From positions 82,849-146,848 of the forward strand of contig CALXFH010000001.1 of NCBI GenBank assembly GCA_944387555.1: DNA of 64,000 nucleotides, in the 5' to 3' direction. A program made the translations under genes and the position numbers. This document shows, piece by piece, positions 16,406 through 51,775 of this stretch. A model generated the notes under the pieces. That model was not told where the DNA came from, made no database searches, and saw nothing but the letters and a program-made list of their open reading frames with translations. The stretch's first letter is position 1; every line of letters starts with the position of its first letter. Source of the stretch: an uncultured Clostridia bacterium (GTDB lineage Bacteria > Bacillota > Clostridia > TANB77 > CAG-508).

Positions 16406-16422
16406 ATTTTAAGTTCCTCCCT

Positions 16423-17328: not shown

Positions 17329-17351
17329 TTATTATTTTCCCCCTAATTAAT

Positions 17352-17570: not shown

Positions 17571-17572
17571 TG

Positions 17573-18560: not shown

Positions 18561-18573
18561 AGGATGATTTTAA

Positions 18574-21379: not shown

Positions 21380-21429
21380 AATTAATAGATGATAAAAGAC
21401 TAGGGAAGAGGTAGTTTTAACAAACTATC

Positions 21430-21890: not shown

Positions 21891-21899
21891 CACTTAAAA

Positions 21900-24400: not shown

Positions 24401-24412
24401 GTGGAGATTAAT

Positions 24413-25489: not shown

Positions 25490-27418
<1,929 letters not shown>

Positions 27419-27443
27419 TTTGAAAAATAAAATAAAAAATATT

Positions 27444-27474
27444 AAACGGTAGATAAAACAAATATCTACCGTTT
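27444..27474. terminator. gyrB intrinsic terminator
   Basis: aaacggtagat-aaaacaaa-tatctaccgttt, a perfect 11-bp stem followed by a T-rich tract. Confidence 0.7.
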
Positions 27475-27574
27475 ATCTATAAAGCCAATAATAATCTCTA
27501 CTAAAACTAATATATCTAATATTAAAACCTAATATATATTACTATATAAATAAGCCTTGATACCACATATATTA

Positions 27575-27910
27575 ATCATTCGCTCGACTATTAATACACC
27601 ATAAGTAACTATATTCGTCCTAAAGCTTAGGACTACTAATAACTACTAAAAAATATTAGATATAAGAATAATCTTAGCTCGAATTTATTACCTATCATTT
27701 GACCATATATTTTAAATAATAAAAAATATATTATAGATATAAAATATTAAATATAAATTAATAATAAATATAGCCTACAAACAAATAATAAATTCTTATC
27801 GCCGACATATTATAATCCATAAAAATGAACCATAATACATCTTTGCTCGAATATTAATAAACGAAATATCATCTATTAATACTCTTCGCTCAACCATTAT
27901 TGACCTTATA
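27575..27910. repeat. Iteron-like array of five direct repeats, TCTT(N)GCTCGA(N2)ATTA(W)TA
   Basis: Copies at ~27578 (cattcgctcgactattaataca), ~27672 (tcttagctcgaatttattacct), ~27794 (tcttatcgccgacatattataatcc), ~27838 (tctttgctcgaatattaataaacg) and ~27884 (tcttcgctcaaccattattgacc). Confidence 0.6.
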
Positions 27911-27967
27911 ATAGTATTATGTTCAAAATTAAAAATTTTATTCAAAAGAATAAAAAATTATAAAAAA

Positions 27968-28029
27968 AATCATTTGTCGAATTTTGTCGATGAAAAGTTC
28001 TTGACAAAAGTGAAAAAAGATTGTAAAAT
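27968..28029 (+). promoter_or_regulatory. Two Spo0A-box-like TGTCGAA/TGTCGAT motifs followed by a consensus sigma-A-type promoter (TTGACA-17-TAAAAT)
   Basis: catttgtcgaattttgtcgatg; TTGACA 28001-28006, 17-nt spacer, TAAAAT 28024-28029. Confidence 0.5.
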
Positions 28030-28039
28030 GCTTTTTAAA

Positions 28040-28643
28040 TCGGAGGTGATAAAAATAAAACAATTAACAGTTCAAGAATGGTTACCTATAGAAAAAATTT
28101 ATAATGATCGGATTTGTTAAATTAAAAAATAATAAAATAATTAAAATTTTAAAAGTTAATCCAATTAATTATAATCTAAAGTCAGATTTAGAAAAAGAGT
28201 CTATTTTAAATTCTTATAAGATTTTTTTAAAAACTTGTAATTTTAATATCCAAATTTTAATTCAAAGTAGTAAAGAAGATTTAACTCATCATATTAAAAA
28301 TATCCAAAAAAATATTTCTAAAAAAGAAAATAAATATTTAGAGAAAATTGCAGAAAATTATATTAATTATATTCAACAAATTAATTTAACAAGAAAATCA
28401 TCATCTAAAGATTTTTATATTATTATATCAGATACAATTAATAAAAAAATGAATATTTTTGAATCAGAAGAAATAATTAAAAATGATTTAAAAGATAAAT
28501 ATTTTAAAGTCAAAGAATGTTTAGCTCGTTCCGGAAATTTAGTTTCTGAATTATCTAATTCAAAAGAAGTTGAAGATTTATTTTTCTCTTTATTAAATAC
28601 CAGAAAAAGTTTAAATAATAAATTAATTAAAATAAATAAATAA
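28040..28643 (+). pseudogene. Frameshifted, TM-less paralog of the VirB4 N-terminal-like domain protein
   Basis: The upstream frame encodes ..KQLTVQEWLPIEKIYNDRIC*. ORF 28104..28643 continues in another frame with MIGFVKLKNNKIIKILKVNPINYNLKS..NIQILIQS, matching 2081..3352 (..RRYVMAIECAGINYDL..PIQIYVQT). Confidence 0.5.
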
Positions 28644-28644
28644 A

Positions 28645-28860
28645 AATAATTAATTAAAAAATAATTAATAAAAAAATAATTAATTAAAAAATAATTAATT
28701 AAAAAATAATTAATTAAAAAATAATTAATTAAAAAATAATTAATTTAAAATAAATTAATTTAAAATTAATTAATTAAAAATAAATTAATAAAAAAATAAT
28801 TAATTAAAAATAATTAATAAAAAAATAAATTAATTTAAAATAATTAATAAAAAATTAATG
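28645..28860. repeat. Microsatellite, ~13 units of a 16-bp repeat, AAAATAATTAATTAAA
   Basis: Read directly from the sequence. Confidence 0.9.
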
Positions 28861-29214
28861 ATTAAAAAAATAAAAAAATAAAAATATTCATTAAGAAAAT
28901 TAAAAGATTTTAAAATAGAAATGAGTTACAAAATAAAATAAAAATTATAAGTAGTTGGTTAAAATGAAAAGATAAAATACAAAGATAAAAAATCCAAATA
29001 AAAGTAAAAAAATATTATAAAGAAATAGGTTAAAAATGTTAGGCGTTTAAAAGAAAGCGGTAATGAATAAAATTAATTACCATTCAAGCAGAATTAGAAA
29101 AATAAGTTTACATATAAGAAAATAATAAATAGAAAAATGTTGTTATATTTTTAGGTTTTATTAAAATAAAGTTTAAAGAATTTAAAATATATTTATATTT
29201 AATTTATATAAATA

Positions 29215-29530
29215 TTAAATAAAAAATAAATTAATTTAAAAAATAATTAATTTAAAAAACAATTAATTAAAAAATAATTAATTTAAAAAACAATTAATTA
29301 AAAAATAATTAATTAAAAAATAATTAATTAAAAAATAATTAATTTAAAAAACAATTAATTAAAAAATAATTAATTAAAAATAAATCAATTTAAAAAATAA
29401 TTAATTAAAAAGTAATTAATTAAAAAATAATTAATTAAAAATAAATTAATTTAAAAAATAATTAATTAAAAAGTAATTAATTAAAAAATAATTGATTAAA
29501 AATAAATTAATTAAAAAATAATTAATAAAA
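29215..29530. repeat. Microsatellite, ~19 units of a 16-17-bp repeat, AAAA(A/C)AATTAATT(A/T)AA; a shorter related block lies at 29985-30120
   Basis: Read directly from the sequence. Confidence 0.9.
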
Positions 29531-30165
29531 TAAATAATTAATTACAAAATAATTATTTAAATAAAAATAATTTTTTTATAAAAATAAAAAAAATCTAATT
29601 AAAGAAAAATAATCAATTAAATAATTGTATATAAAGAAAAAATTAAAAATAAAAAGGAGGTTGCATAAATTTTGAAAAGTTTAAAAGAAATTATAAAAGA
29701 AACTTTAAAAAATATAAAAAAGGAATTAAAAGAATTACTAAAAAGGCTTAGGCATTAAAAGAAAAAGAAGAATTGATAAAATGAAAGACAAATTTAAAGT
29801 GAGTAGCTACAAAGGTTTACATATATAAAAATAAAATTCTTAATGCTATTTAAATAAATAAGTTTGTTGTTTCGATTTAGTATTTCAAAAAAATAAAATT
29901 TCATAAAATTAAAAAGAAAAAATAAAATATTTAATTTTAAATATTAATAAAAAATAATCAATTAGAAATAAATTAATTAAAGATAATTAACAAAAAAATA
30001 ATAAAATAAAAAATAAAATAAATTAAAAAATAAATTAATTAAAAAACAAATTAATTAAAAAATAAATTAATTAAAAAAATTAATTAAATAAAAATAATAA
30101 AATAAAAAAAATTAATTAACAAAAATGAATAATTAATTTTATTAAATAGAAAAAGGAGGAGAAAA

Positions 30166-32034
30166 TTGTTAAAAGAAAAAATAGAAAATATATTTAATAA
30201 AAATAAAAAAGAAATTAATGATAATTTTTTTGAAGGGACTATATATAAAAAAGATGAAATATCACCAGCATATATAGATATGCAAAATCCTAAATATTTA
30301 GAAATAGATAATTTATATTATGGAGGATTAATAGTAGTAGATTATTATAGAGAACAGACAGATATCATTTTAAAAACATTAATAGAAACTAATATTAATA
30401 TGAATATTTCTGTTTTTTATGAAAAACAAGATCCGTTTAAAACTATAAAAGATTTAACATATCATATAGGTAATGTAGGAGTAGAATTAAAAGAAAGTAA
30501 TCAAAACAGAGAGGATATAGATATAGCAGCTTTTACATACAATGATGCTAAATATATAAGAAAAGAAATACAAGTAAATAATGAAGATATTTATTATTTA
30601 TATATTTATATTAGTATATATGCAGAGAATGTAAAAGAATTAGAATACTATTTAAATAAAATAGAAGGTATTGCACAAAGCAAAGGCATGCAAACAAGAA
30701 GAGCAAATTTTAGACAAGAAGAATTATTTTTATCTTGCTTACCTATAATGGAAAATAATAATACAATAAAAGATGCAGCGAGAAGAAACGTCTTAACTTC
30801 TGGTTTACTTGCAACATACCCATTTATATCTTCTACTATATTTGACCAAGATGGAATCTTTATTGGTACTAATATATATAATAATTCTTTAGTTTTTATA
30901 GACAGATATAATAATCAAAAATATAAAAATGCTAATATATGTATATTTGGAACTAGTGGAGCTGGTAAATCATTTTATACTAAATTATTAATATTAAGAT
31001 ATAAACTATTAGGGATTAGTCAATATATAATAGACCCAGAAAGAGAGTATGACCATTTATGTGAAAGTTTAAAAGGAACACAAATTAAAATAGGACCTAA
31101 TTCAGATACATATATTAATGTTTTGGAAATAAGAAAGGAAAGTTTGGAAGAAGGAGAAAGCGGATATTTAGCTACTAAAATAGGAAAGCTTATAGGTTTC
31201 TTTAATCTAATATTTGGGGAATTAAATGAAGAAGAGAAGGCTTTAATAGAAGAGAAACTAATAGATACATATAAAATGAAGAATATTAATTTTGATGATA
31301 AAAGCTTATATAAAGAAATAAGAACAAATAAAAAGATAAAAAAGGTATTTAAAGATCCACAAGATATGCCAATACTAGAAGATATATATAATATATTAGG
31401 AAAAGATGAGAGAACTAAAAAATTTCAAATAAAACTTATTCCTTTTGTTAAGGGGTCTATGAAATTCTTTAATAATATATCGAATATAAAATTAGATAAT
31501 GAATTAATAGTTGCAGATATATATGATTTAGGAGAAGAGAATTTAAAATATGGTATGTATTTATTTACAGAAATATTTTGGGACAAGATTAAAGAAAACA
31601 GAAATGAAAAGAAAGCAATATACTTAGATGAAATATGGAGATTAATAGGTGTAACATCTAATAAAGAAGTTGCAAGCTTTATATATAAAATATTTAAGAC
31701 TATTAGAAAATATGGTGGTAGTGGAGTAGCAATAACACAAGATATATCAGATATATTTAGTTTGGATAATGGTACATATGGAAAAAGTATTTTAAATAAT
31801 TCTAGTATTAAAACATTTTTTGCATTAGAAGAGGAAAATATAAAAATACTTTCAGATTTTACTAATTTATCAGAAAAAGAAAAAGTAGAAATTAAATCTT
31901 TAAAAAGGGGAGAGTGTTTAATGTTTGTTGGTGATGAACATATATTAACTAAAATAGAATGTTCTGAATTAGAACAAGAAATATTAGAGGGAGGAAAGAA
32001 TAAGAATAATGAAAAAAATAATATTAGCAATTGA
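30166..32034 (+). CDS. VirB4-like ATPase paralog with an N/K-rich biased composition
   Basis: Walker A CIFGTSGAGKSFYT; Walker B KKAIYLDEIWRLIG (DE-x-W); the N-terminal region parallels 181..2205; RBS AAAGGAGGAG. Confidence 0.65.
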   Translation: MLKEKIENIFNKNKKEINDNFFEGTIYKKDEISPAYIDMQNPKYLEIDNLYYGGLIVVDYYREQTDIILKTLIETNINMNISVFYEKQDPFKTIKDLTYHIGNVGVELKESNQNREDIDIAAFTYNDAKYIRKEIQVNNEDIYYLYIYISIYAENVKELEYYLNKIEGIAQSKGMQTRRANFRQEELFLSCLPIMENNNTIKDAARRNVLTSGLLATYPFISSTIFDQDGIFIGTNIYNNSLVFIDRYNNQKYKNANICIFGTSGAGKSFYTKLLILRYKLLGISQYIIDPEREYDHLCESLKGTQIKIGPNSDTYINVLEIRKESLEEGESGYLATKIGKLIGFFNLIFGELNEEEKALIEEKLIDTYKMKNINFDDKSLYKEIRTNKKIKKVFKDPQDMPILEDIYNILGKDERTKKFQIKLIPFVKGSMKFFNNISNIKLDNELIVADIYDLGEENLKYGMYLFTEIFWDKIKENRNEKKAIYLDEIWRLIGVTSNKEVASFIYKIFKTIRKYGGSGVAITQDISDIFSLDNGTYGKSILNNSSIKTFFALEEENIKILSDFTNLSEKEKVEIKSLKRGECLMFVGDEHILTKIECSELEQEILEGGKNKNNEKNNISN

Positions 32035-33289
32035 AAATAAAAAGTTAGAAGATAAATTAAAAGAAAATAATAATATAAAAATAATATGTAACAATTTACA
32101 ATATAGAGAAGCTATTTTAGAAATATTAGATAAAAATAAAAATATAGATTTTATTTTAATTAATGAAAATTTACCAGGAATAATTAGTATAGAAGAATTA
32201 GTAAAAAAAATAAAAATAATTAATAATAAAATTAATATAATTATTTTTTTAGAAAAAGATGATATTAATAAAATAAATAGATTAAAAAAATTAAATATAA
32301 ATAATATTTATTTAAATAAAAAAATAAATATAAATAAAATAATTAATTTAATTCTTAAAAATAATAAATTTAATAATAATTATAATAAAAATAATTTATT
32401 AAATTATAAAATAAAAAAAGAAAAAATAAATAATAATAAATTAATTAAAATAAATAATTTTAAAAATAATAAATTTAATAAATTAAAAATTATTTTAAAT
32501 AAAATTAAATTAAATAAAAATAAATTAAACAATAATATTCATTTAAATAATAAAAATAAAAAAGAAAATAAATTAATTACTATAATGGGAAAAAGAAAAA
32601 CAGGAAAAAGTACAATAATAAATTTATTATTAATTTATTTATTACAAAAAAATAAAAAAATATTATTAATTAATTTAAATAAACAATTAGAAAATAATTA
32701 TTTAATTTTATTCGGAAAAAAATATTATAAAATTAAAAATAATTATTTTAATAAATATAATTTAATTAATAATAAATTAAATAAAAAAAATATTTTTTTA
32801 AAATCTGAAATTAAAATAAATAATAATTTATTCTTTTTAAATAATTTCCAAAAAATAATTCAACAAAATAATTATAATAATATTTTAGAATATTTTACTA
32901 AATATTATATTAAGAAATATGATTATGTTTTAGTAGACATCGGAGATAGTGCAAATAGAAGAATAAAACAAAAAATAGTAAAAATAAGTGATAAAAACAT
33001 AATGGTTATGACCAATGATTTACTAGGCATTAAAGAGGTAGAGAGATTAAGTCTGGAGTCAAACTTAAAAGAAGATAACAAAGAAAATAGTTTACATATA
33101 ATACTTAATAAATATTATTTTAATTCAATTAGCAACAGCATTTTTAAAAATTTGGTTAAAAGAAAAATAAAATTTAGTACAATTTTTTATAATAAAAAAT
33201 TTATAAATCTTTCAAATAAAATTTTAAAAAATAGAAAATTTAATTTTAATTTATTTTTTAAAAATAAATTAAAAAATATTTTAAAATAA
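32009..33289 (+). CDS. Pseudo-receiver domain fused to a ParA/MinD-family ATPase (TadZ/CpaE-like architecture); extreme N/K/I low complexity
   Basis: N-terminal receiver-like fold in which the phospho-acceptor position is N (FILINENLPG). P-loop ITIMGKRKTGKSTIINLL; Walker B-like DYVLVDIGD. The 3' end overlaps a satellite core copy (33033-33102). Confidence 0.45.
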   Translation: MKKIILAIENKKLEDKLKENNNIKIICNNLQYREAILEILDKNKNIDFILINENLPGIISIEELVKKIKIINNKINIIIFLEKDDINKINRLKKLNINNIYLNKKININKIINLILKNNKFNNNYNKNNLLNYKIKKEKINNNKLIKINNFKNNKFNKLKIILNKIKLNKNKLNNNIHLNNKNKKENKLITIMGKRKTGKSTIINLLLIYLLQKNKKILLINLNKQLENNYLILFGKKYYKIKNNYFNKYNLINNKLNKKNIFLKSEIKINNNLFFLNNFQKIIQQNNYNNILEYFTKYYIKKYDYVLVDIGDSANRRIKQKIVKISDKNIMVMTNDLLGIKEVERLSLESNLKEDNKENSLHIILNKYYFNSISNSIFKNLVKRKIKFSTIFYNKKFINLSNKILKNRKFNFNLFFKNKLKNILK

Positions 33290-36200
33290 AATTGATTAAA
33301 TAAAAAAATAAATAAAATTAATTAAATTAATTAATAAAAATAAAATAATTATTTTTAATAAAATAAAAAATTAATTAAAAAATAATTATTAATTAAAAAT
33401 AAAAAATAATTAATTTAATAAAATATTAAAATAAATATAAAAAATATTTTTTAAATATTTAAATAATTTAATTAATTAAATATTTAATAAAAATAAAAAT
33501 AATTTTTTATAATAAATATTAATTTTTATTTTTTAATAATTTAGGAATAAATTATTTTAAAAATTTTAAATTATAAAATTATATTTTTAAAAATAAAAAA
33601 ATTATATAAAAATATTTTAAAAAACTTATAAGAATAAAAATAGTTAATAAAATTATAGAAAAAATAATCAATAAAATGTTAGGCATTAAAAGGATTAGAG
33701 AGTTATTAATAAAATATAGAAAAACAAGAAAAAGGTTTACATATAATAATTAATAAAAACAAATCAGATATGGAGATTAGATATATTTTTAATAATTTTA
33801 CTGGTAAAAAATTAAAATTTACTATGATTTAATATTATTAAAAAATAATATTAAATAAAAAATAATTAAACAAATTAAAATATTAATTTAAAAATATTTA
33901 TAGAATAAATTAAAAAAATATTTTAATAAAAAATAAATAAAATTAATTAATAAAAATTATTCAATAAAATAAAAAATAAAATTAATCATTACTAATTAAT
34001 AAAAAATAATTAATTAATAATAAAAAAATAAATAATTAAATAAATAAAATAATGAAATAAATGAAAATAATTTAATTAAATAAAAAATAAATATTAAAAT
34101 AATTAAATAATTAATTTATTTAAAATAATTATTAAAAATAAAAAATTAAATTATAAAAAAATAAAATAAATTTTTTCTAATAATTTTATTAATAAAATAG
34201 AAATTTAAAATATAAAAAAATGTTTTACCAGATATAAATGTTTTTAATTAAAATAAAAGTTCACAAAAAAGACAATAGCATAAAAGAATAATAAAAAATA
34301 TTTATGAAATTGGTAAAAAATAATTAATAAAAAACTAGGCATTAAAAGAATTGAACGATTATTAATAAGCCACTGAATAATAAACAAAAAAGTTTACATA
34401 TAACATATTATAAATATTATTTTTCTTGGATTATTAATCAGTGTTTTCAAGAATTTTCTTAAATACTAAAATTAAATTCATTTTATTTTTATAAAAATAA
34501 ATTAAAATAAATAATATAAAAAATTAATTTTATAAAATTAATAAAAAATATTTAATTTAAAAATAAATAAAATTAATTAATAAAAAAATTATTTAATTAA
34601 ATTAAATAATAATAAAAAATAATAATTTAAAAATAAATAAATTAATTAAATAAATAAAAAAATATTTTAATAATTAAAATATTAATTAATTTAAATTAAT
34701 AAAAAACAATTATTAATTAAAAAATAAAAATAGTTAATTAAATAAAAAATTAAAAAATAAATATAAAAAATATTTAAATAATTAATTAATATAAAATAAT
34801 AAAAATTAATTTTAAAAAATATATTTTAAATTATAAACTAAAGAACCAAAAATTATAGAGGAAAAATTATAGTTACTTTTCTGTTAATCTTAAAAAGCAT
34901 ACATAAGGATAAAAAATATAAAATAGAAAGCAAAATATAGTAAAAATAATTAATGAATTACTAGGCATAAAAGGGATAGACAAGCTAGATTTTAAATAAA
35001 TAAAATAGAAGAAAATAGTTTACATATTTTTGTTAAATTAAATTTGATTTTATCTAATTATTTAAAATAATTTAAAAAATTGTTGTTATAAAAAAGAAGT
35101 TTATTATAATTTTTTATCAAATATTAAAATAGAAAATAGAAATTATAAAAAATTAATTTAAAATATTTTTTAAAAATAAAAAATATTTAATAAATAAAAT
35201 TAATTAATAAAAAGTTATTTAATAAAATAAAAAATAAATAAAAATAATAAAATAATTATTTAAAAACAAATAATTTAAAATTTAATTAAATATAAAATAA
35301 TTATTAATTAAAAATAAAATTAATTTAAAAAATATTAAAATAAATATAAAAAAGATTTTTTTAAATATTTATATAATTTAATTAATTATTTATAAAAATA
35401 AAAATAATTTTTTATAACAAATATAATTTTTGATTTTGAATAATAAGAAGAAATTATATTAAAAAAAATAATATAAAAGGATTTTATAATGACTATCATA
35501 ATAAAATAGTTAATAAAAGCATAAAAAATAATTAATAAAATGTTAGGCATTAAAAGGATTGCACGATTAATAACAGAGAAAGAAAAAACAACAAAAATAG
35601 TTTACATATAACGAATGATTTAAATTATTTTTATTTAATAAAAGAGTCTGATTTAAAAAAATTATTAAAACAAAGATTAAGTTTATTATTATTTTTTATA
35701 ATAAAAAATTTAAAAATATAAAAAAGAAAATATTAAAAATTAATTTTAAAACATTTTTTAAAATTAAATAAAAAATATGTTAATAAAAAAATAAATAAAA
35801 TTAGTTAATAAAAAATTTATTTAATTAAATTAAAAAAATAATAAAAAATAATTAAATAATTAAAAATATAAATAATAAAAAAATAATAATTAAAAAATAA
35901 TTTTAATTAAATAAAAAAATATTTAATTAATTAAAATAAAAAATAAATATTTAAAATATTAATTTAAAATAATTTTATTATAAAAAATAAAATAAAATTA
36001 AAAAAATTATTTTTATAGCAATAATATTTTTGATAATAAAAAATAAAAAAGGTAGTATTGAAATTTTTCTAATTTAAAGAATAGTTTAAATTAATAAAAA
36101 AATATAATAAAAACAAAATAATTTGTGAAAATGTTAAAAAAATAAATTTTAAAAAGTTAGGCATTAAAGGGATTGCAAGATTAATAATAGATTAGAAGAA

Positions 36201-36850: not shown

Positions 36851-37066
36851 TACAAAAATTATAAACTAAAAAGAATATAAAAAATTATTTATTATTTTAT
36901 AAAAAGAAAATTATAAAATTAATTTATTTAATTTTATAAATAAATAATTATTTTAATTAATAATTAGAAAAATAAATTATTTTATTTTAAATAAAATAAT
37001 TAAAATTAAAATAATTAAAAATAAAAAATAATTAAATAAAAATAGAAAAAGAAAGGATGAAAAAAT

Positions 37067-37792: not shown

Positions 37793-37814
37793 AAAAGAAA
37801 GGATATTATAAATT

Positions 37815-38783
37815 ATGGAGAAAAAAATAAATACTAATATTGAAAATAATAAACGAAATGAAAAAGAAATAAATAATAAAAATAATACATATAAAGAGGA
37901 TAATAAAAAGAAATTTAAATTATTAGATCCAAAAAATGATGTTGTATTTCAAATGTTATTTCTTAAAAATAATTTAGCAAAAGGATTATTAGATAATATT
38001 TTAATAGATAAAATAATTTCTGTAAATGTTGATGTAAATAAACAGTTATTAGGAGATAGACCAGAAGATAAAATAGGAATAGTAGATTTAAGAGCAATAA
38101 TAAATAATGAAATAGAATGTGAAGTAGAAATGCAAATGTTTTATTTTAATAATTTTGTTCCGAGATTTTTAGATTATTGGTCTAAAATGTATTCAAGACA
38201 ACTAAAAAAAGGAGATAATTATGACTTATTACATAGAGTTATTTCTATTGCTATTATTAATCAAAATATTCCAGACTTAAAAGGATTACCAGCACATACT
38301 ATATGGAATATAAGAGAATCTAGGAATCATAGAAAAATATTGACAAATAACTTAGAGTTACATATAATAGAAATACAAAAGGCTAAAGAGGAATATAAAC
38401 ATAACAAGGATGATAAATTATTACAATGGATAAAGTTTCTAGAAAACCCAGAAAGCAAGGAGGTAGATAGAATAATGGTAAGTAATAAAGAAATAAAAGA
38501 AGCTAAAAAAGAATTATTTAGCTTAAGCCAAGATGAAGAAAACCAAAGAATAGCAGATTTTAGAGAAAGAGAAATTATGGATAGAAAGGATATCTACGAA
38601 ACAGGAAAGGATGAAGGTAAGGCAGAAGGAATAAAAGAAGGAAGAAAAGAAGGAATAAAAGAAGCAAGAGAAACTTTTATAATAAATTTACTTAAGATTA
38701 AAATGCCAATTGATAAAATAATAGAATTTACAAGTGCAACTAAAGAAGAAATTGAAAAAATAAAGGAAAGTAAAAATCTATAA
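37815..38783 (+). CDS. Rpn-family (YhgA-like) PD-(D/E)XK recombination-promoting nuclease / putative transposase
   Basis: N-terminal DPKNDVVFQMLF...EVEMQ pattern; C-terminal repeat-helix domain ...KEGRKEGIKEARETFIINLLKIKMPIDKIIEFT..EEIEKIKE. Confidence 0.6.
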   Translation: MEKKINTNIENNKRNEKEINNKNNTYKEDNKKKFKLLDPKNDVVFQMLFLKNNLAKGLLDNILIDKIISVNVDVNKQLLGDRPEDKIGIVDLRAIINNEIECEVEMQMFYFNNFVPRFLDYWSKMYSRQLKKGDNYDLLHRVISIAIINQNIPDLKGLPAHTIWNIRESRNHRKILTNNLELHIIEIQKAKEEYKHNKDDKLLQWIKFLENPESKEVDRIMVSNKEIKEAKKELFSLSQDEENQRIADFREREIMDRKDIYETGKDEGKAEGIKEGRKEGIKEARETFIINLLKIKMPIDKIIEFTSATKEEIEKIKESKNL

Positions 38784-38828
38784 AAATATAATGTCTATTA
38801 AAAATAAAAAGCAAGGGGTTATATAATT

Positions 38829-39134
38829 ATGGTAAAAAATCAAAGAATAGAAGAAATTAAAAGAGAATTAATGAATTTAAATCAAAATGAAGAAAATCAA
38901 AGGCTTATAGATTTTAGAGAAAGAGAATTAAGGGATATGATAGATCTTTACGAAACTGGAAAAGATGAAGGAAGGAAAATAGGAATAGCAGAAGCAAGAA
39001 AAGAAGCAAGAAAAACTATAATAACAAATTTACTTAAGATGAAAATACCAATTGATAAAATAATAGAAGTTACAAATGCAAGTAAGGAAGAAATTGAGAA
39101 AATAAAGAAAAGAAATTATAATAAAGAAGTTTAA
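38829..39134 (+). CDS. Tandem partial paralog of the Rpn nuclease, C-terminal domain only
   Basis: LNQNEENQRLIDFRERELRDMIDLYETGKDEGRKIGIAEARKEARKTIITNLLKMKIPIDKIIEVT.ASKEEIEKIKK aligns to the last ~90 aa of 37815..38783. Confidence 0.55.
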   Translation: MVKNQRIEEIKRELMNLNQNEENQRLIDFRERELRDMIDLYETGKDEGRKIGIAEARKEARKTIITNLLKMKIPIDKIIEVTNASKEEIEKIKKRNYNKEV

Positions 39135-39273
39135 TTTTGTTAATATTTAAAACAATTATACATATATTTATATTATCATAAATTATTAATTAATTTAAAA
39201 AAATTTAAGTTATATGAAAAACCAGAGTCCGTTAGGATTCTGGTTTTTATAATAATATATATTTTATATAGAT

Positions 39274-39314
39274 GTGTCCCCAAATGCACATTTTTGAGCA
39301 AAAGGAAACGTCCC
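39274..39314 (-). repeat. GGGAC-element copy A (reverse orientation), immediately 3' of the XRE gene stop
   Basis: Reverse complement reads gggacgtttccttttgctcaaaaatgtgcatttggggacac; compare copies at 44684 and 47707. Confidence 0.7.
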
Positions 39315-39685
39315 TATTTTTTATTTTTTTCATATTCTTTGAAAAATGAATATGATGTAGTTAATATTTTATAATAATAGTCCTTCATTTCTTCAGAACT
39401 TCTATTTAATATTCTATCTATTTTTTGTGAGGTTGAATTTGTTTCTTCATTACCAAATAAAATATAGTCTGTAGATACTCCAGTAAATGCTACTATACGG
39501 CATAATGTTTTTATACTTAATGAACGTTCGCCTCTTTCTATTTGCCCTAAGAATATATCAGATATATCAACTGCTTCTGAAAATACTTCTCTACTCATTT
39601 TCATGTTTTCTCTTGCTTTTCTTATTCTTTCTCCTACTTCTAAATTATTTGGTATCTTTGTATCCATATTATTCCTCCCAAACAT
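39314..39685 (-). CDS. XRE-family helix-turn-helix transcriptional regulator, divergent from the DGR target gene
   Basis: HTH LSREVFSEAVDISDIFLGQIERGERSLSIKTLCRIVAFTGVSTDYIL. Confidence 0.75.
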   Translation of the reverse strand: MFGRNNMDTKIPNNLEVGERIRKARENMKMSREVFSEAVDISDIFLGQIERGERSLSIKTLCRIVAFTGVSTDYILFGNEETNSTSQKIDRILNRSSEEMKDYYYKILTTSYSFFKEYEKNKK

Positions 39686-39780
39686 ATATTTTTATTATAT
39701 ACTAACAGATTTTTAAAACTAATATGCTATTAGTAAATATATAAATTAAGATAAAAGCATAAAAATATTTTAAAAAACTG

Positions 39781-39809
39781 TTGCAAAATAAATATGCTTA
39801 AAGTATAAT
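39781..39809 (+). promoter_or_regulatory. Promoter for the DGR target gene (TTGCAA-17-TATAAT)
   Basis: TTGCAA 39781-39786, 17-nt spacer, TATAAT 39804-39809. Confidence 0.5.
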
Positions 39810-39995
39810 TCTAATATAAGTTATTAGCTATTTTAAAAAATAGTAGCACCTTGAAAAAAACTATATTTTCTTTATTAGATTTTTTGTATATTAAATAATA
39901 TTTTTATTAAAAGGTATACTATTTTTTAGATAGTAAATAATAACAAAAGAATAACAAAAAATATAATTTAGACAAACTAAAGAAGGAGGTTATAT

Positions 39996-41375
39996 ATGTA
40001 TAATTATTCTAAAAATTATAATTTTAATTCTAATAAAGATAAAATAAAAGACAAAATAAAAAAGATAAAAACAAATAATTCTGGTATTACTATTGTTGCT
40101 TTAGTTGTAACTATTATTGTTTTATTAATTTTAGCAGGAATAACAATAGGAGCAATTACTGGAGATAATGGTATTATTAATAAAGCGCAAGAAGCTAAAA
40201 ATGATACCAATTATGCTCAATGGGAAGAAAAGATTGACCAAGCTATCATAGATGCAGAAAGTAAATACAGAAATCCAACTATGATTAATGTAAAAGAAGA
40301 GTTAAGAGATAAAGGCATAATTGAAGATTATGACAAAGTAGATGACAAAACAGGAGCTATAACAACAGTAGATGGTACCATAATAGAAGGTAAGCTTGAT
40401 GATTATATAGAGTTTGGACCAGGTATGGTAGCGGATAAGAATGAAACTTATACAGATGCAAATGGAGACACAGCAACGATACCAAAAGGTTTTGAGATAT
40501 TAGAAGATGCAAGTACAGTAGATGATGGTTTAGTTATTCAAGATGAAAGTGGTAACCAATTTGTATGGATACCAGTAGAAACACCAGTAGCAAGTGCAGA
40601 AGCAGATGGAACAACAAATAAAGCAATGGCAATAAAGAATGGAAATAATTATAGAGGTTTACTTTATGACTTTACTAGTACAGGCTCAACAGTAAAAAGT
40701 GGATGTACAACGACTACAAGTAGTTATAGAGAGCCAGCTTATTTAACAGATTCAAGTTATGCGGATGGGTCTTCATATAATCAAGATGGAGATGGAAATA
40801 AAATAGTAACAGAAGATAGTCTACAACAAGAATATAATAAAATGATGGCAAGCGTTGAACAATATCATGGCTTTTATGTAGGAAGATATGAACTTGGTTT
40901 AGAAGGAACAACGCCAGTAGTAAAAAACGCAAGTACGAATTCAGGTGTTACAACAGCAGATGCAAGTAATTCAAATACTAAGATGTGGTATGGCTTATAT
41001 AGTAAGTGCAAAGAATTTGCACCAGAAGATAGTAATAAATCAGTGGTAAGTAGTATGATATGGGGAAGTCAATATGATGAAATGCTTAATTGGATGCAGG
41101 CAAATGGAGAAGATGTGTCAGCATCAGCTGATAACACTGAAACAATAAGAAATAATTCTACAAAAACAGGAAGTCAAGAAAAAGATTTTATGAAAAATGT
41201 ATATGACCTTTATGGATGTCATTATGAGTGGAAATTAGAGGCCAACATCACGAAAGAACGTGTTTATCGTGGAGGTAATTCTAGCAGTAGCAGCGCTCCT
41301 AGCAGCCGTCGCAGCACCTATTCGAGCAATGCCAGCAGTACCTATTCAGCCCGTCTCACTTTATATATAAAGTAG
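39996..41375 (+). CDS. DGR target (variable) protein. N-terminal pilin-like hydrophobic anchor, beta-rich central region, and a C-terminal FGE-sulfatase/C-type-lectin-fold-like domain ending in the VR
   Basis: N-terminus ..NNSGITIVALVVTIIVLLILAGITIGAITG; C-terminus ..DLYGCHYEWK..ERVYRGGNSSSSSAPSSRRSTYSSNASSTYSARLTLYIK; strong RBS AGAAGGAGG. Confidence 0.8.
   Translation: MYNYSKNYNFNSNKDKIKDKIKKIKTNNSGITIVALVVTIIVLLILAGITIGAITGDNGIINKAQEAKNDTNYAQWEEKIDQAIIDAESKYRNPTMINVKEELRDKGIIEDYDKVDDKTGAITTVDGTIIEGKLDDYIEFGPGMVADKNETYTDANGDTATIPKGFEILEDASTVDDGLVIQDESGNQFVWIPVETPVASAEADGTTNKAMAIKNGNNYRGLLYDFTSTGSTVKSGCTTTTSSYREPAYLTDSSYADGSSYNQDGDGNKIVTEDSLQQEYNKMMASVEQYHGFYVGRYELGLEGTTPVVKNASTNSGVTTADASNSNTKMWYGLYSKCKEFAPEDSNKSVVSSMIWGSQYDEMLNWMQANGEDVSASADNTETIRNNSTKTGSQEKDFMKNVYDLYGCHYEWKLEANITKERVYRGGNSSSSSAPSSRRSTYSSNASSTYSARLTLYIK
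41240..41360 (+). repeat. DGR variable repeat (VR) at the 3' end of the target gene
   Basis: Matches the TR at 43522..43632; over a 93-nt core, 14 of 16 mismatches correspond to adenines in the TR. Confidence 0.8.
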
Positions 41376-41489
41376 TACTGAGACCTGAGTTGTGAGTATT
41401 GGAAATAGTAGAAAATTAAAACATTAAGAGAATTTAATTTTTTAGGTTGTAAAAGAATAAAAACTGTAGTAAAATTTAAGTTAATAGAA

Positions 41490-41580
41490 AGGTAGGTAGG
41501 AAATTCCCTTGCAGGGCGAAGACGCCAAAAGGGGATTTCCTACCGGACTAGTCCGGTAAGACTAGTCCTATTTTTTTGCG
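41490..41580 (+). other. GC-rich nested palindromes downstream of the VR (candidate DGR target-recognition hairpin / terminator)
   Basis: ggtaggaaattccc-[ttgcagggcgaagacgccaaaa]-ggggatttcctacc; ggactagtcc-ggtaa-gactagtcc-tattttttt; gcgaaaaaataggact. Confidence 0.5.
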
Positions 41581-41648
41581 AAAAAATAGGACTAAGAACA
41601 ACGAAAGGTTACATAAAACCTTATAAAAATAGAAAGGTGGGATTTTTT

Positions 41649-42080
41649 ATGAAATTTTTAAAAAGAATAGAAAAAATAAAGTCAGAAAATGAAGATAAAA
41701 TAGTATTAGCAAGATGTGGATTATTTGTAGTGGCAGTAGGAAATGATGCAAGAATATTAAGTAAAGAATTTGGATTAAAGAAAACTTGTATGAAAAGAGG
41801 GGTATGTAAAGTAGGAATACCTGCTAGCTATGCATTAAAATATTTAAAATTAATAGAAGATAAAGGTTATAGTTATTTATTATATGACTATGATAAAAAT
41901 ACAAAAGAAATGATAGAAAAATATAGATATATTGGTACTAATAAAGTAGAAGAAATTAGCATAGATTGTCCTTCTTGTGAAAATTATAAAGAACAAGATG
42001 TTATAGATATCTTTGAATTATTAAGAAGAAAAAAAGAAAAAAATAAAAAAGAAGTAAATGGGGAAAAAGAAAATGAATGA
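41649..42080 (+). CDS. Small protein with a MutS domain I (mismatch-binding domain)-like sequence, located between the DGR target and Avd. The ORF track uses a GTG start at 41637
   Basis: KIVLARCGLFVVAVGNDARILSKEFGL...VCKVGIPASYALKYLKLIEDKGYSYLLYD parallels MutS [25 protein letters not shown]...[29 protein letters not shown]. The Phe is conserved and the Glu is not. AAAGGTGGG lies 8 nt upstream of ATG 41649. Confidence 0.45.
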   Translation: MKFLKRIEKIKSENEDKIVLARCGLFVVAVGNDARILSKEFGLKKTCMKRGVCKVGIPASYALKYLKLIEDKGYSYLLYDYDKNTKEMIEKYRYIGTNKVEEISIDCPSCENYKEQDVIDIFELLRRKKEKNKKEVNGEKENE

Positions 42081-42468
42081 AAAAAGTAGAGAAAATAACA
42101 TAAGAGAAAATGGAAAAAATGAACTAATATTAATACCAAAATATGAAAGATATATGCAGTATATGATAGAAATAATTTTAAAAATGCCAAGAACAGAAAA
42201 ATTTAATATAGGAAATGAATTTAAAACAGTTATGTATAAATGCTTAGAAAATATACTGTATTTAAATAAAATAGAAATATCAAAAAGAATGTATTATTTA
42301 AATTTAATAGATGCAGGTTTAAATATTCAAAGAATAATGCTTAGGATAATGTTAAAAAATAAGTGGATAGATAAAAAGAAATATTTAGTATCAATGGAGT
42401 TGTTATATGAAATAGGAAAAATATTAGGAGGATTAATAAAGTTTTATGCCAAAAACAATAAGAAATAA
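42058..42468 (+). CDS. avd: Avd-like DGR accessory protein (small basic helical protein); the likely start is ATG 42073
   Basis: ~130 aa, basic, predicted all-helical; sits immediately upstream of the RT and overlaps its start. Confidence 0.55.
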   Translation: MGKKKMNEKSRENNIRENGKNELILIPKYERYMQYMIEIILKMPRTEKFNIGNEFKTVMYKCLENILYLNKIEISKRMYYLNLIDAGLNIQRIMLRIMLKNKWIDKKKYLVSMELLYEIGKILGGLIKFYAKNNKK

Positions 42469-43462
42469 GTATTATAAATATTTAACATTTAATAGGCTTA
42501 TGGAAGCACATAAGAAAGCAAGAAGGGGAAAAGGATATAGAGAAGAAATAATAAAATTTAATCTAAAACAAGAAGAATATATAATGTATCTATTAGAAAG
42601 GTTGAGGAATAAGAGTTATAAACATGGAGGCTATAAAGTATTTTATATAACAGAGCCAAAACCTAGAAAAATAGAACGTTCAAGATATATAGATAGAATA
42701 GTACATACATTTTATGTAGAAAACTTTTTAAAACCATATTTTATGCCTTGTTTTATAAATACAAGTTATGCATGTATTCCATGTCGTGGTATGCATAAGG
42801 CATGTTTAGATGTGCAAAAAGCTATGAAACATTGTAAAAATATTTGGGGAGAATATTACATTCTAAAGATGGATGTAACAAAATATTTCCAAAATATAGA
42901 TAAGGACATATTGTTAGAAATATTAAAGAAGAAAATAAAGGATAAAGATTTATTGTGGTTAACAAAAGAAATAATATATTCAAATAAAGGAAAAAAGAGT
43001 TTACCAATTGGAAATTATACATCACAAATGTTTGCAAATATTTATTTAAATGAATTAGACCAATATGTGAAAAAAGAATTGGGAATAAAATATTACTTTC
43101 GTTATATGGATGACTCAGTTTTATTTGTACGTGGCAAAGAAGAAGCTAAATGCTATTTAGAAAAAATAAAAGAATTTATTTATTCTAAATTAGAACTAAC
43201 ATTAAATAAAAAAACACAAATATTTAAATCTAAACAAGGAGTAAATTTTTGTGGTTATAAAATAAATGAATATAGACTAAAGATTAGGGATAAAGGAAAA
43301 AGAAAATTAAAGAAAAAAATCGTAAAGTTAAAAAAGTTAATAAAAGAGGGAGAGCTTACAAGTGATGATGCTAAAAAATATTTAGTAGGTCATCTAGGAT
43401 ATATAAAAATAGCAGATACATATAAGTTAGAAAATAAACTATTTTATAGAGAAAATAAGTAA
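42446..43462 (+). CDS. DGR-type reverse transcriptase
   Basis: Motif 4 LPIGNYTSQMFANIYL (the [ILV]GxxxSQ DGR signature); motif 5 FRYMDDSVLF (YMDD); motif A region ILKMDVTKYFQNI; 338 aa with no maturase or endonuclease domains. Confidence 0.85.
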   Translation: MPKTIRNKYYKYLTFNRLMEAHKKARRGKGYREEIIKFNLKQEEYIMYLLERLRNKSYKHGGYKVFYITEPKPRKIERSRYIDRIVHTFYVENFLKPYFMPCFINTSYACIPCRGMHKACLDVQKAMKHCKNIWGEYYILKMDVTKYFQNIDKDILLEILKKKIKDKDLLWLTKEIIYSNKGKKSLPIGNYTSQMFANIYLNELDQYVKKELGIKYYFRYMDDSVLFVRGKEEAKCYLEKIKEFIYSKLELTLNKKTQIFKSKQGVNFCGYKINEYRLKIRDKGKRKLKKKIVKLKKLIKEGELTSDDAKKYLVGHLGYIKIADTYKLENKLFYRENK

Positions 43463-43521
43463 ATTTAGAAAATATAAAAAATTATTAAGTAAAAATAATT
43501 TTAATTAGGGATAAATCAAAA

Positions 43522-43632
43522 GGCCAACAACACAATAATCGTGGAGGTAATTCTAACAATAGCAACGCTCCTAGCAATCGTAACAACAACAATCCGAACA
43601 ATACCAACAGTAACAATTCAGCCCGTCTCACT
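43522..43632 (+). repeat. DGR template repeat (TR), rich in AAC/AAT codons
   Basis: ggccaacaacacaataatcgtggaggtaattctaacaatagcaacgctcctagcaatcgtaacaacaacaatccgaacaataccaacagtaacaattcagcccgtctcact. Confidence 0.85.
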
Positions 43633-43877
43633 CTAATACGATTCTAGATTATATATTTTAAGGAATATATACAATGAAAGTATTAGTATTAAAGAGATTT
43701 ATTCCTTCCTAATATAGGTAAAAAAGTATCAGTAAAATAGGTATTAGTAAAAATACCAAGAAGTATTTTGAATATACTTATTTTACAATTAATTATTTAA
43801 TTTAAGTTGATATATTTTTATTTAATTTAATTTATTTTATTTTTTAAATACTTAAAATTAATTTAAAGAGGTAAAAA

Positions 43878-44144
43878 ATGAATATATGTTTTGTAATAGG
43901 AAAAATAATAAGTGATATACAATTTGATTTTATAATAGACGGAAAAAGTATTGGGAAAAAATTTTCAATTGTAAGATTTGAAATAGAATTGCTAGATAAA
44001 GAAAAAACAAAAGTAAGTGTAATAGCTTATGGAAAAATAGCAGAAAAATGCTTTCAAAAGTTAGTAAAAAGTGATATTGTAAGTATATATGGCGACCTGA
44101 ATTCTAATGGAAAGTTAGAAATAGAAGAAATAGATTTATTATAA
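43878..44144 (+). CDS. Mini SSB-like OB-fold protein (88 aa) lacking the acidic tail
   Basis: MNICFVIGKIISDIQF..GKKFSIVRFEIEL..VIAYGKIAEKCFQKLVKSDIVSIYGDL follows the SSB N-terminal OB-fold pattern; RBS AAAGAGG. Confidence 0.4.
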   Translation: MNICFVIGKIISDIQFDFIIDGKSIGKKFSIVRFEIELLDKEKTKVSVIAYGKIAEKCFQKLVKSDIVSIYGDLNSNGKLEIEEIDLL

Positions 44145-44363
44145 AATAAAAAAATACATGTATATTATAAATAAAAAATAAAATAATAAATTATAATATA
44201 AAGAAAAAATAAGAAATAAGAAAACAGAAGAAAAAATAAAAGAATAAATAAAAACAAAAGAAAAAGGAAAAAATAATAAAATCTAAAAAAGGAATAATTA
44301 AAAATAAGGAAACAAAATAAATAAAAAAATAAAACAAAGTAGAAATAATTTTAAAATATAAAA

Positions 44364-44666
44364 ATGGAGGTTTATAAAATGGAAGAAAATATAAATAAAA
44401 AAGATATGATAAAATTAATATATAAAGCACAAGAGGAGAAAATAGATAATATTATTAAAAAAGTAAATAGAGAAGTAAAGGATGAATTAAAAACAATAAA
44501 TACAGAAAAAGTAATAGCTTCATCTAATGAGCCAAATGAAACACGAGAAGTTTTTAGAAAAATAGAAGATAACTATAATATAAAAATAACAAGATATAAT
44601 GAAGAAATGTATAAAAAAGGGTTTATAGATGGTGTAAACTTTATGATGAATTGTTTAGACAAATAA
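44364..44666 (+). CDS. Hypothetical protein
   Basis: RBS AATGGAGG; normal composition; no family recognised. Confidence 0.4.
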   Translation: MEVYKMEENINKKDMIKLIYKAQEEKIDNIIKKVNREVKDELKTINTEKVIASSNEPNETREVFRKIEDNYNIKITRYNEEMYKKGFIDGVNFMMNCLDK

Positions 44667-44683
44667 AATAATTGGGGACGTTT

Positions 44684-44719
44684 CCTTTTGCGCATTTTTG
44701 CGCAATCTGGGACACATTT
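44684..44719 (+). repeat. GGGAC-element copy B, immediately 3' of the 44364..44666 stop
   Basis: ggggacgtttccttttgcgcatttttgcgcaatctgggacacattt. Confidence 0.7.
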
Positions 44720-44739
44720 ATTAAACAATAAAAATATAA

Positions 44740-44789
44740 ATCATAAAAAACGTGATAATATCACGAAATTGTTAGCTAAAAACGTGATT
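44740..44789. promoter_or_regulatory. Two similar 15-bp palindromes, ACGTGATAATATCACG and ACGTGATTAAATCACG, ~17 bp apart (operator-like)
   Basis: Read directly; ~440 bp upstream of gyrA. Confidence 0.45.
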
Positions 44790-45163
44790 AAATCACGTTT
44801 TCCTTTCTAAATAATTATAAAAAGATATATTAAAAATAGAATCTATTACAACGGCACACAAAATAAAGAATATTTGTGCACCATTGTAGTGTTATAAAAT
44901 ATTAAAAAAATAAATTATATGAAATATGTGTAATATGTATGATATATGTTTGGATTAAATGCTTGCAAAATAATGTAAATATAAGGGATTTTCAGTTGTT
45001 TGGATTTTCCGAACAACTGAAATTAAAAAGTATTAATAAAAATAAATAAGTAATATATAATAATTTTTTTTATTCAAAAATTTATTATAAAATAACATTA
45101 AAAAAATTAATAGAAAAAAGCAAAAAATACCTTACTGAATAAGGAATTTCTTGTTAAAATTAC

Positions 45164-45192
45164 TTGCAAAATTTATCTAGTTTTAGTATAAT
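45164..45192 (+). promoter_or_regulatory. gyrA promoter (TTGCAA-17-TATAAT)
   Basis: TTGCAA 45164-45169, TATAAT 45187-45192, ~40 nt upstream of the gyrA ATG. Confidence 0.55.
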
Positions 45193-45231
45193 ACAAATGT
45201 AGAAAAATACGAAGAAAAGAGGGAAAACAAT

Positions 45232-50465: not shown

Positions 50466-50512
50466 GATAAAGCCTCCTTGTAATAATAATATTTAGTTTA
50501 AATTTTCATGTT

Positions 50513-51391: not shown

Positions 51392-51401
51392 AACAATCCT
51401 C

Positions 51402-51743: not shown

Positions 51744-51775
51744 TCCTTTACATAATATTTAGGTTTTAAGAAAAC

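Follow-up and report, generated by a model that had tools for sequence, protein, structure and literature searches.

In Bacillota, the genes at the chromosomal origin oriC usually form the cluster dnaA-dnaN-(yaaA)-recF-(remB)-gyrB-gyrA, accompanied by clusters of DnaA boxes. Here, we analysed a 64,000-nt stretch of DNA from an uncultured Clostridia bacterium (contig CALXFH010000001.1, positions 82,849 to 146,848; referred to as the window, position 1 being its first letter), in which gyrB and gyrA are separated by an interval of 17,813 bp. The order and orientation of dnaA, dnaN, recF and gyrB at oriC as well as the DnaA-box clusters are shared with the usual arrangement, whereas the clade to which the window belongs lacks yaaA and remB and has gyrA at least 3.7 kb away from gyrB. 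Several of the genes in between resemble components of type IV secretion systems (T4SS). In the staphylococcal Trs and enterococcal Tra systems, a separate TrsD-like open reading frame (ORF) stands just before the gene for the VirB4-like ATPase, and the locus shares this small TrsD/TraD-like gene directly 5' of a VirB4-like ATPase with pSK41/pGO1 Trs, pIP501 Tra and the CD1110-type system of C. difficile conjugative transposons (CTn). Further components in common with Gram-positive T4SS gene sets, chromosomal remnants of integrative conjugative elements included, are a coupling protein with TrwB/TraG-D domains, a T4SS-pilin-like protein and polytopic membrane proteins. Unlike these sets, however, the locus holds no relaxase, integrase, VirB8-like or cell-wall hydrolase gene among the ORFs scanned and is arranged in two divergent groups around gyrA and the dnaD/dnaC-like genes. 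In addition, it is vertically inherited across the clade with at most 36% identity to plasmid homologues, and a TadZ-like ParA ATPase and a conserved candidate structured RNA are attached to it.

An earlier note on this sequence had interpreted the interval as a composite island acquired from a much more AT-rich replicon and now in partial decay. Our analysis leads to a different view: very probably, the interval represents an old inherited gene block that has swollen threefold through its own decayed repeats and a few accessory genes, and not a recent AT-rich island. Its length is accounted for by 5,231 bp of conserved sequence, 5,299 bp of repeats and 7,283 bp of accessory genes (17,813 bp), compared with a median gap between the gyrase genes of about 5.2 kb in the clade. 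The first of these layers (~5.2 kb) would have been inherited vertically and comprises an RNA gene convergent with gyrB and a four-gene cassette under a conserved promoter, encoding a TrsD-like protein, a VirB4-like ATPase, a ParA/TadZ-like ATPase and a 241-aa helical protein, with other T4SS-type genes located past gyrA. This layer was presumably captured long ago from a conjugative element and then held by purifying selection. The second, species-level layer (5.3 kb) may have arisen by tandem duplication of the 3' end of the parA-like gene followed by decay, and by expansion of 15-16-bp A+T microsatellites, probably through slippage and unequal recombination; copies would also have landed in the TrsD-VirB4 spacer and in the gap between dnaN and recF. 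If the repeats are neutral, this unconstrained DNA would lie near the mutational equilibrium of the host, at about 4-8% guanine plus cytosine (GC). The third layer (~7.3 kb) would consist of an Rpn-family nuclease gene with its partial duplicate and a diversity-generating retroelement (DGR) accompanied by two small ORFs; these would have entered to the left and to the right of a gene for a helix-turn-helix (HTH) regulator, between the 241-aa gene and the conserved gyrA leader. The features of the first two layers, their borders and the partner genes are as follows:

25490-27418, plus strand: gyrB, the left border (Pfam DNA_gyraseB, Toprim, HATPase_c)
27434-27945, minus strand: candidate structured RNA gene, based on covariation and conservation
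27945..27916, minus strand: promoter-like site of the RNA gene, TTGAAT-18-CATAAT
~27909..27479, minus strand: core of the RNA, ~430 nt, closed by an 18-bp terminal helix
27475..27443, minus strand: terminator hairpin of the RNA followed by a T-run
27975-28029, plus strand: cassette promoter TTGACA-17-TAAAAT (11/12 promoter match), followed by GGAGGTGA
28046-28643, plus strand: TrsD/TraD-like gene, a VirB4 N-terminal piece (PF26593, TraC-like), with a remaining ORF at 28104-28643
28644-30165: microsatellite array in the TrsD-VirB4 spacer, 15-16-bp tracts and two units (29040, 29749), of strain-variable length
30166-32034, plus strand: VirB4-like ATPase (PF19044, PF12846), with TTG start and strong ribosome-binding site (RBS)
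32009-33289, plus strand: ParA/MinD-type ATPase of TadZ/CpaE-like architecture
33290-37066: 3.8-kb tandem array of five clear units and one degenerate unit, 580-656 bp each
37067-37792, plus strand: 241-aa all-helical protein, last gene of the cassette
45076-45231, plus strand: gyrA leader with promoter-like TTGCAA-17-TATAAT (45164-45192)
45232-47694, plus strand: gyrA, the right border (Pfam DNA_topoisoIV and six GyrA C-terminal repeats)
50163-53494, minus strand: partner T4SS-type genes beyond gyrA, encoding 100-aa, 292-aa, 113-aa and 572-aa proteins

A scan with one genome per species yielded about 34 relatives, all of them uncultured gut Clostridia with GyrB 79-93% identical. The layout of the window was seen again in about 30 GTDB species representatives and in 97 metagenome contigs obtained by a motif scan. 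Both gyrase genes were present in 21 related loci, and in every one of them they were split by a gap of 3.7-9.4 kb (median ~5.2 kb); the TrsD-like and the 241-aa gene were present in each of these loci, and the VirB4-like gene in 20. Wherever enough sequence was available, the left side showed the order gyrB, conserved non-coding block, TrsD-like, VirB4-like, usually ParA-like, 241-aa gene, sometimes HTH, gyrA, and past gyrA the relatives carried the dnaC/dnaI-like gene, a DnaD-domain gene, two membrane proteins, a pilin-like protein and the coupling protein. On the metagenome contigs, the RNA adjoined gyrB in 79 of 79 cases, and TrsD/VirB4 came next on all 58 contigs that extend rightwards beyond the RNA. 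The median identity to the window was 72% for VirB4, 66% for RecF and DnaA and 86% for GyrB. The identities of VirB4, TrsD and the 241-aa protein correlated with that of GyrB (Spearman rho 0.65-0.71; housekeeping pairs 0.74-0.84), demonstrating that the cassette proteins co-diverge with the gyrase subunit. Close relatives are not empty at this site, and only the region at ~37.8-45.1 kb and the arrays are specific to the present species; a lineage-specific gain, as proposed earlier, thus applies to ~37.8-45.1 kb but not to the core block, which is common to the clade. In a comparison with 46 more distant Clostridia, gyrA was located no more than 1 kb from gyrB in about 20, and in at least 10 the 6-10 kb around gyrB contained no gyrA; hence adjacency of the two genes is common in Clostridia but not a rule. 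Literature searches returned no report of gyrB and gyrA being split by T4SS genes. The absence of yaaA and remB, which had also been stated before, was confirmed, as no such ORFs occur in the dnaN-recF or recF-gyrB junctions, and it extends to the whole clade, in which the median gaps are ~40 bp (dnaN-recF) and ~80 bp (recF-gyrB).

The base composition of the interval was determined in comparison with its surroundings. The borders given in the earlier note, the end of gyrB at 27418 and the start of gyrA at 45232, agree with the Pfam matches, and the interval is indeed lower in GC (17.8%) than the remainder of the window (25.8%; 26.8% if the dnaN-recF gap is excluded). The window has an overall GC content of ~26% with a switch in GC skew near 18.3 kb, and some 300-nt segments drop to 1.3-2.3% GC. 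Low GC is, however, not a property of the interval as a whole. It is confined to the two non-coding stretches 28644-30165 (8.2%) and 33290-37066 (7.5%), together 5.3 kb, and to the TrsD-like (15.6%) and ParA-like (9.8%) genes, whose products contain 44% and 57% asparagine, lysine and isoleucine (N+K+I), respectively. The region 37067-45231 is core-like with 24.3% GC, and GC at third codon positions (GC3) in the genes of the interval (0.06-0.19) overlaps with that of the flanking genes (0.08-0.25). Four-fold degenerate sites have a GC of 4.0% in the core, 7.0% for the cassette and 10.6% for the accessory genes; the arrays have 7.5-8.2% GC over their length. The position of the accessory genes above the core is the opposite of what a more AT-rich source replicon would predict, and at neutral sites no part of the interval appears more AT-rich than the host. 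The arrays look like the host's own unconstrained DNA, strand skews included: four-fold sites of leading-strand core genes have A.616, T.345, G.025 and C.015, and the main array has A.572, T.353, G.050 and C.026. In the relatives, the same two genes are AT-rich as well (TrsD-like 14-18% GC, ParA-like 9-16% GC). The low GC of the interval can therefore be attributed to repeats that would be at host equilibrium and to the amino-acid make-up of two fast-evolving N/K-rich genes. More generally, with neutral sites at ~4% GC, unconstrained or fast-evolving DNA will look 'foreign', and composition alone is a poor guide for calling islands.

These results bear directly on the possibility that a single island makes up the whole interval, having come fairly recently from a much more AT-rich replicon and being now in decay. 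The interval does lie 8-9 GC points below the rest of the window, and it holds conjugation-type genes, an Rpn-family nuclease, a retroelement and a frameshifted gene. The earlier statements that the region is composite and has mobile-element-type genes hold, and so does that of partial decay, seen in the present species in the frameshifted TrsD-like gene and the pseudogene-like repeat arrays. Nevertheless, we regard the recent acquisition of a single island as highly improbable, since the relatives carry the same split and the same low-GC genes, which the earlier note itself had named as grounds for refutation, the cassette co-diverges with GyrB, neither GC3 nor four-fold GC falls below core values, and the same AT-rich repeats also occur outside the interval. 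Moreover, scans of the ORFs of the interval revealed neither an integrase nor a recombinase domain, the best plasmid homologue of VirB4 is only 36% identical, and no tRNA was noticed at either border (the tRNAs of the window are located at 6.3-6.5, 54.1-54.4 and 59.6 kb), flanking direct repeats not having been searched for systematically. The promoter that the earlier note had assigned to gyrA was found as a promoter-like site within the conserved leader, but gyrA does not form a natural right border because T4SS-type genes resume beyond it (50163-53494). A different objection would be that the junctions or the ultra-AT arrays are assembly artefacts, i.e., chimeric joins or collapsed or expanded low-complexity sequence. 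Low-complexity A+T repeats are difficult to assemble, many related contigs stop just past gyrB or within the region, and the length of one microsatellite tract varies between assemblies. However, the exact GyrB and GyrA proteins were recovered on ~20 contigs from independent metagenome assemblies of two projects, and the junction sequences, for which the earlier note had asked for a check against misassembly, are identical among them. The dnaN-recF gap (3,021 bp), the gyrB-TrsD spacer (685 bp), the array (3,777 bp; three assemblies) and the region 37067-45231 (8,165 bp) agree base for base, and the region is covered from end to end by contigs as long as 148 kb. The TrsD-VirB4 microsatellite tract is the sole stretch that differs, with 15-bp and 121-bp indels in one assembly; a more divergent strain (L006) carries an extra 673-bp unit in this spacer. 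Artefacts of this kind are therefore extremely improbable.

The cassette that forms most of the conserved layer is preceded by a promoter with two direct heptamers, TGTCGAA/TGTCGAT, at a distance of 9 nt, and this architecture recurs in 36 loci on at least 25 distinct contigs. The TGTCGAA-like heptamers resemble the Spo0A-box consensus, which hints at stationary-phase or sporulation control. The TrsD-like product matched NF041427 (TrsD) with E=2.7e-6, far below the curated cut-off, and the frameshift reported earlier for this VirB4-N-domain gene was confirmed as a +1 shift near 28105, the upstream frame reading VIKIKQLTVQEWLPIEKIYNDRIC and ending in a stop. In the relatives, the TrsD-like gene is an intact separate ORF of 189-209 aa just 5' of the VirB4-like gene. 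The VirB4-like ATPase was identified by PF19044 (71 bits; cut-off 25.8) and by NF045971 of the CD1110 family (E=5.7e-85; its 286 bits do not reach the equivalog cut-off of 325), and its best plasmid homologues are at most 36% identical. The 241-aa protein has homologues in 3693 clusters at the 90% identity level, none of which carries a Pfam domain or a name, and it matched no Pfam, NCBIfam, PHROG or PDB profile; an AlphaFold2 model built with 18 close homologues reached a pLDDT of 41 and was unusable. In compact relatives, gyrA follows 100-240 bp downstream of this gene. Among the partner genes beyond gyrA, the 572-aa coupling protein (51776-53494) matched PF10412 (37.9 bits; cut-off 20.5) and PF12696 (27.5 bits; cut-off 22), and the 113-aa protein showed a weak match to T4SS_pilin (25.3 bits against a cut-off of 26.6). 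The 100-aa protein and the polytopic 292-aa membrane protein are hydrophobic by eye and matched no Pfam, NCBIfam or PHROG model; judged from this hydrophobicity only, they may take VirB3-like and VirB6-like roles, respectively. The partner genes are conserved, two relatives (L188 and L200) having the same order and L200 a coupling protein that is 64% identical.

The third gene of the cassette is the source of most of the repeats. A profile of six orthologues of the ParA-like protein matched the structures of Borrelia PF-32, MinD and Soj with E=9e-9 to 3e-5, the single-sequence match to Pfam CbiA being below the cut-off. The protein has a deviant Walker A motif, GKRKTGKST, and its N-terminus weakly resembles Response_reg (21.5 bits; cut-off 30.2) and Spo0F structures (E ~0.6). 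It evolves fast (31-38% identity among the relatives aligned), and two species have lost Walker A and one lacks the gene, but the orthologues share the C-terminal motifs LLGIK and NK-Y at the same spacing. Each array unit is made up of a decayed parA-like 3' end and 350-400 bp of nearly pure A+T low-complexity DNA. The motif pair TAGGCATTAAAAG, 44-66 nt, AGTTTACATATAA was found eight times by pattern search, once within the ParA-like ORF itself (33024-33101), where it encodes LLGIK...SLHIILNK; including degenerate units and the copy in the gene, eleven units were counted, one of them marginal. In composition-aware local alignments against shuffled sequences, the array units matched the last ~260 nt of the parA-like gene with z of 9-20 and one another with z of up to 48. 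Two units of the same family lie in the dnaN-recF gap, with motif pairs at 23313/23358 and 23842/23897 (g23313 against u34336, z=38; g23842 against u35544 and u36158, z ~30). As the C-terminus encoded by the gene is orthologous to that of the relatives, copying proceeded from the gene to the units, and most units, most clearly those in the 3.8-kb array, derive from the parA-like 3' end. No unit retains an open frame. A similar layout, with an intact gene followed by tandem partial 3' copies and more copies nearby, is known from Borrelia vls and Neisseria pilS. In contrast to these, stop codons and frameshifts abound in the copies here, the product of the gene is a cytoplasmic ATPase instead of a surface antigen, and gene conversion from silent cassettes was rejected for these reasons.

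Several observations weigh against the view that the interval is an inherited block enlarged by decaying repeats. The two units located between TrsD and VirB4 show weak similarity to the gene (z ~3), and of these v29040 matches other units with z ~10 and v29749 with z ~3-5 at most. A ParA-family hidden Markov model (HMM) detected nothing in the arrays when these were translated in three frames, and blastx against all ORFs of all loci returned the self-hit only, so that the homology of the repeats is based on DNA alignments of AT-rich sequence. Furthermore, the two G/C-containing motifs TAGGCATTAAAAG and AGTTTACATATAA are nearly invariant among units with scrambled spacers, and both recur in units of two sister species, L154 and L148, even though in L154 they have been lost from the parA-like gene. 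Pure neutral decay under strong AT pressure does not predict such invariance; selection or gene conversion must have contributed. In L017, a relative at similar distance, the same site (16369-19892) holds an array of five ~650-700-bp units, which are not significantly similar to the units of the window (z<=4), indicating a history more complex than a single expansion. With respect to the cassette, no VirB8-like or cell-wall hydrolase gene was identified among the scanned ORFs, no relaxase within the region scanned (the ORFs and the precomputed Pfam hits for 22 kb around gyrA), the matches of the VirB4-like protein and of Avd from the DGR stay below the curated NCBIfam cut-offs, and the frameshift in the TrsD-like gene may mean that the cassette is failing in the present species.

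The behaviour of the two motifs raises the possibility that the units are working cis-elements kept by selection, for example centromere-like binding sites of the ParA-like protein or a partner, or else promoters or small RNA genes. The motifs are nearly invariant over ten copies with scrambled spacers, the units of sister species keep them even where the gene has lost them, one copy resides within the parA-like gene, and all copies lie within 16 kb of oriC. We nevertheless consider this role unlikely, as neither the spacing of 530-710 bp nor the non-palindromic motifs resemble those of known centromeres, a ParB-like or other adaptor gene did not turn up, and the unit number varies between strains; in addition, most relatives lack an array, and the units of L017, at similar distance, are unrelated. 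For the cassette itself, one might assume that an old integrative conjugative element has merely left it behind as an inert relic, which by chance was never deleted. This would be in line with the missing relaxase, integrase, cell-wall hydrolase and VirB8-like genes among the scanned ORFs, with the loss of the ParA-like Walker A in two relatives and of the gene in one, and with the frameshifted TrsD gene of the present species. Small AT-rich genomes, however, usually delete inert DNA, and VirB4 is intact and conserved like RecF and DnaA over ~100 contigs, as are promoter and RBS, while the gene order is kept on both sides of gyrA; an inert remnant is thus very unlikely. We therefore favour an inherited block with decayed repeats, within which the clade-wide vertical inheritance of a set of conjugation-type ATPases with no relaxase in view suggests a chromosomal use of a T4SS-type machine. 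The arrays would then provide a read-out of the mutational equilibrium of the lineage, with the puzzle that two short motifs resist decay.

Apart from the units themselves, an initial impression by eye that the L017 array was homologous to the units of the window was dropped in view of z<=4 against shuffles. The L017 units share, also by eye, the motifs AAAGTTTACAG, CTACGTAATAAA and TTAACATAATATA.

Long structured RNAs have been described in Bacillota as the OLE, GOLLD, ROOL and raiA classes, which exceed 400 nt, possess many covarying helices and their own promoter and terminator, and are restricted to certain lineages. The RNA adjoining gyrB shares all of these traits, but it lacks a sequence or structure match to these classes or to other Rfam 15 families, is fixed between gyrB and a T4SS-type operon and is built around the repeated motif UYGAGCNAAG. 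The 460 nt past gyrB, C-rich on the plus strand, are conserved far above the neighbouring genes, with 66-79% DNA identity in nearly all members of the clade, and the RNA was found in more than 130 contigs. RNAalifold applied to 24 sequences returned 13 helices with 140 pairs, of which 91 show compensatory changes. Paired cells amounted to 96.9%, compared with 83.4% in shuffles and 37-45% in slid controls, and covariation reached 0.434 versus ~0.08 in controls. As G-U accounts for 24.8% of the cells and pairing on the plus strand drops to only 72.6%, the conserved structure with its compensatory changes is strand-specific. The terminator hairpin varies in sequence between species and keeps its hairpin form. 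The earlier note had regarded this hairpin as the terminator of gyrB; a hairpin is present at 27443-27475, but its T-run lies on the minus strand and fits the minus-strand RNA at least equally well. The 'iteron-like repeats' reported in the same place turned out to be junction motifs of the RNA: UYGAGCNAAG stands between helices in four copies by our reading of the alignment and in three according to the repeat tool. With this correction, the remaining parts of the island listed in the note were all recovered, i.e., the VirB4-like and ParA-like genes, the microsatellites, the 3.8-kb array, the Rpn nuclease, the DGR and the frameshift.

Searches against Rfam 15 gave nothing at the gathering score and nothing relevant at E<=10 for the window or E<=5 for seven homologues, no match to the RNA was obtained in plasmid and phage records, and literature searches returned nothing on a ~430-nt RNA adjoining gyrB. 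A tmRNA was ruled out, as ARAGORN found none. The motifs AGUCC, GGAUGAAU and GGCUUAU resemble conserved regions of RNase P, but their order is wrong, no covariance model matched at E<=10, and the RNA is undetected in several species, so that this identity was rejected. A further 23 high-GC contigs that fitted the RNA pattern were attributed to chance, since none gave an nhmmer match and the 15 that were scanned had no Rfam hit. The ~430-nt RNA is therefore a well-supported candidate for an undescribed class of structured RNA absent from Rfam, with a fixed genomic partner. By nhmmer, it was not detected in at least six species of the clade that keep the cassette, and in one relative (L024) the alignment shows most of it to be deleted, which makes an essential role improbable. 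Our guess would be that it acts as a multivalent protein-binding scaffold.

Taken together, it is conceivable, and we put this forward tentatively, that an undescribed class of RNA (27479-27909, minus strand) works with a domesticated, relaxase-less T4SS-type machine under a Spo0A-box-like promoter, fixed around the origin-proximal gyrase genes in a whole family of uncultured gut Clostridia, and that the repeat units may be a further cis-acting part. The host lineage comprises abundant, uncultured gut bacteria.

The remaining part of the interval, between the 241-aa gene and the gyrA leader, contains the following features:

37815-38783, plus strand: Rpn-family PD-(D/E)XK nuclease / putative transposase (PF12784, E=2e-33; TIGR01784, 94.5 bits against 52.1)
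38829-39134, plus strand: 101-aa duplicate of the C-terminal part of Rpn
39314-39685, minus strand: XRE-type HTH regulator (PF01381)
39996-43786, plus strand: complete DGR
39996-41375, plus strand: DGR target gene, with the variable repeat (VR) at 41266-41363 at its 3' end
41637-42080, plus strand: MutS_I-like accessory gene
42058-42468, plus strand: bAvd (60.1 bits against 40)
42446-43462, plus strand: reverse transcriptase (RT; RVT_1, 66.6 bits)
43538-43635, plus strand: template repeat (TR)
43631-43786, plus strand: RT-14 RNA (106 bits)
43878-44666, plus strand: two small ORFs of 88 aa (weak match to single-strand-binding protein, SSB) and 100 aa

The 7.3 kb of Rpn and DGR genes are a species-level addition with core-like GC. 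The 101-aa copy of Rpn was produced by a 342-bp tandem duplication (38452-39112; 79% identity). The HTH gene is located between the 241-aa gene and gyrA in five relatives as well (49-61% identity), while the two small ORFs had no tblastn match among the relatives compared at the thresholds used. The last 75-155 nt 5' of gyrA are conserved in 11 relatives and mark the right edge of the species-specific additions. The DGR shares with known DGRs an RT, Avd, adenine-specific TR/VR differences, a VR at the 3' end of the target gene and an RT-associated RNA; its TR and VR are 98 nt long and 83% identical, and 14 of 17 mismatches occur at TR adenines. Compared with known DGRs, nothing about it is unusual; it has a MutS_I-like accessory ORF, and its position upstream of gyrA is incidental.

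On the other side of gyrB, outside the interval, the window contains the origin genes and the gap that carries the two array-family units:

18531-19931: dnaA
20264-21379: dnaN
21380-24400: dnaN-recF gap of 3.0 kb with 11.9% GC, holding 112-bp repeats, hairpin repeats and a DnaA-box cluster
24401-25489: recF

In the relatives, the distance between dnaN and recF does not exceed 1.1 kb. DnaA boxes cluster 5' of dnaA, between dnaA and dnaN, and 3' of dnaN; the third cluster (21439-21876) contains four perfect TTATCCACA boxes. A short element, GAAAATCAAAAATAAGCCGATTTTATTTTTT, is present in four or five copies in the dnaN-recF gap (22270-22300, 22444-22475, 22750-22780 and 24286-24320) and could be a weak A/T hairpin with a T-run; by eye, it also occurs in L017 (8537-8790 and 19240-19275) as 105-bp tandem repeats.

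Beyond gyrA, a gene for a dnaC/dnaI-like helicase loader (PRK06835; 48049-49069, minus strand) is split at Walker A into two overlapping frames, which correspond to positions 1-194 and 194-323 of the model. The matches of the two parts adjoin back to back in most relatives, suggesting a single ORF, and one relative (L114) shows the same overlap.

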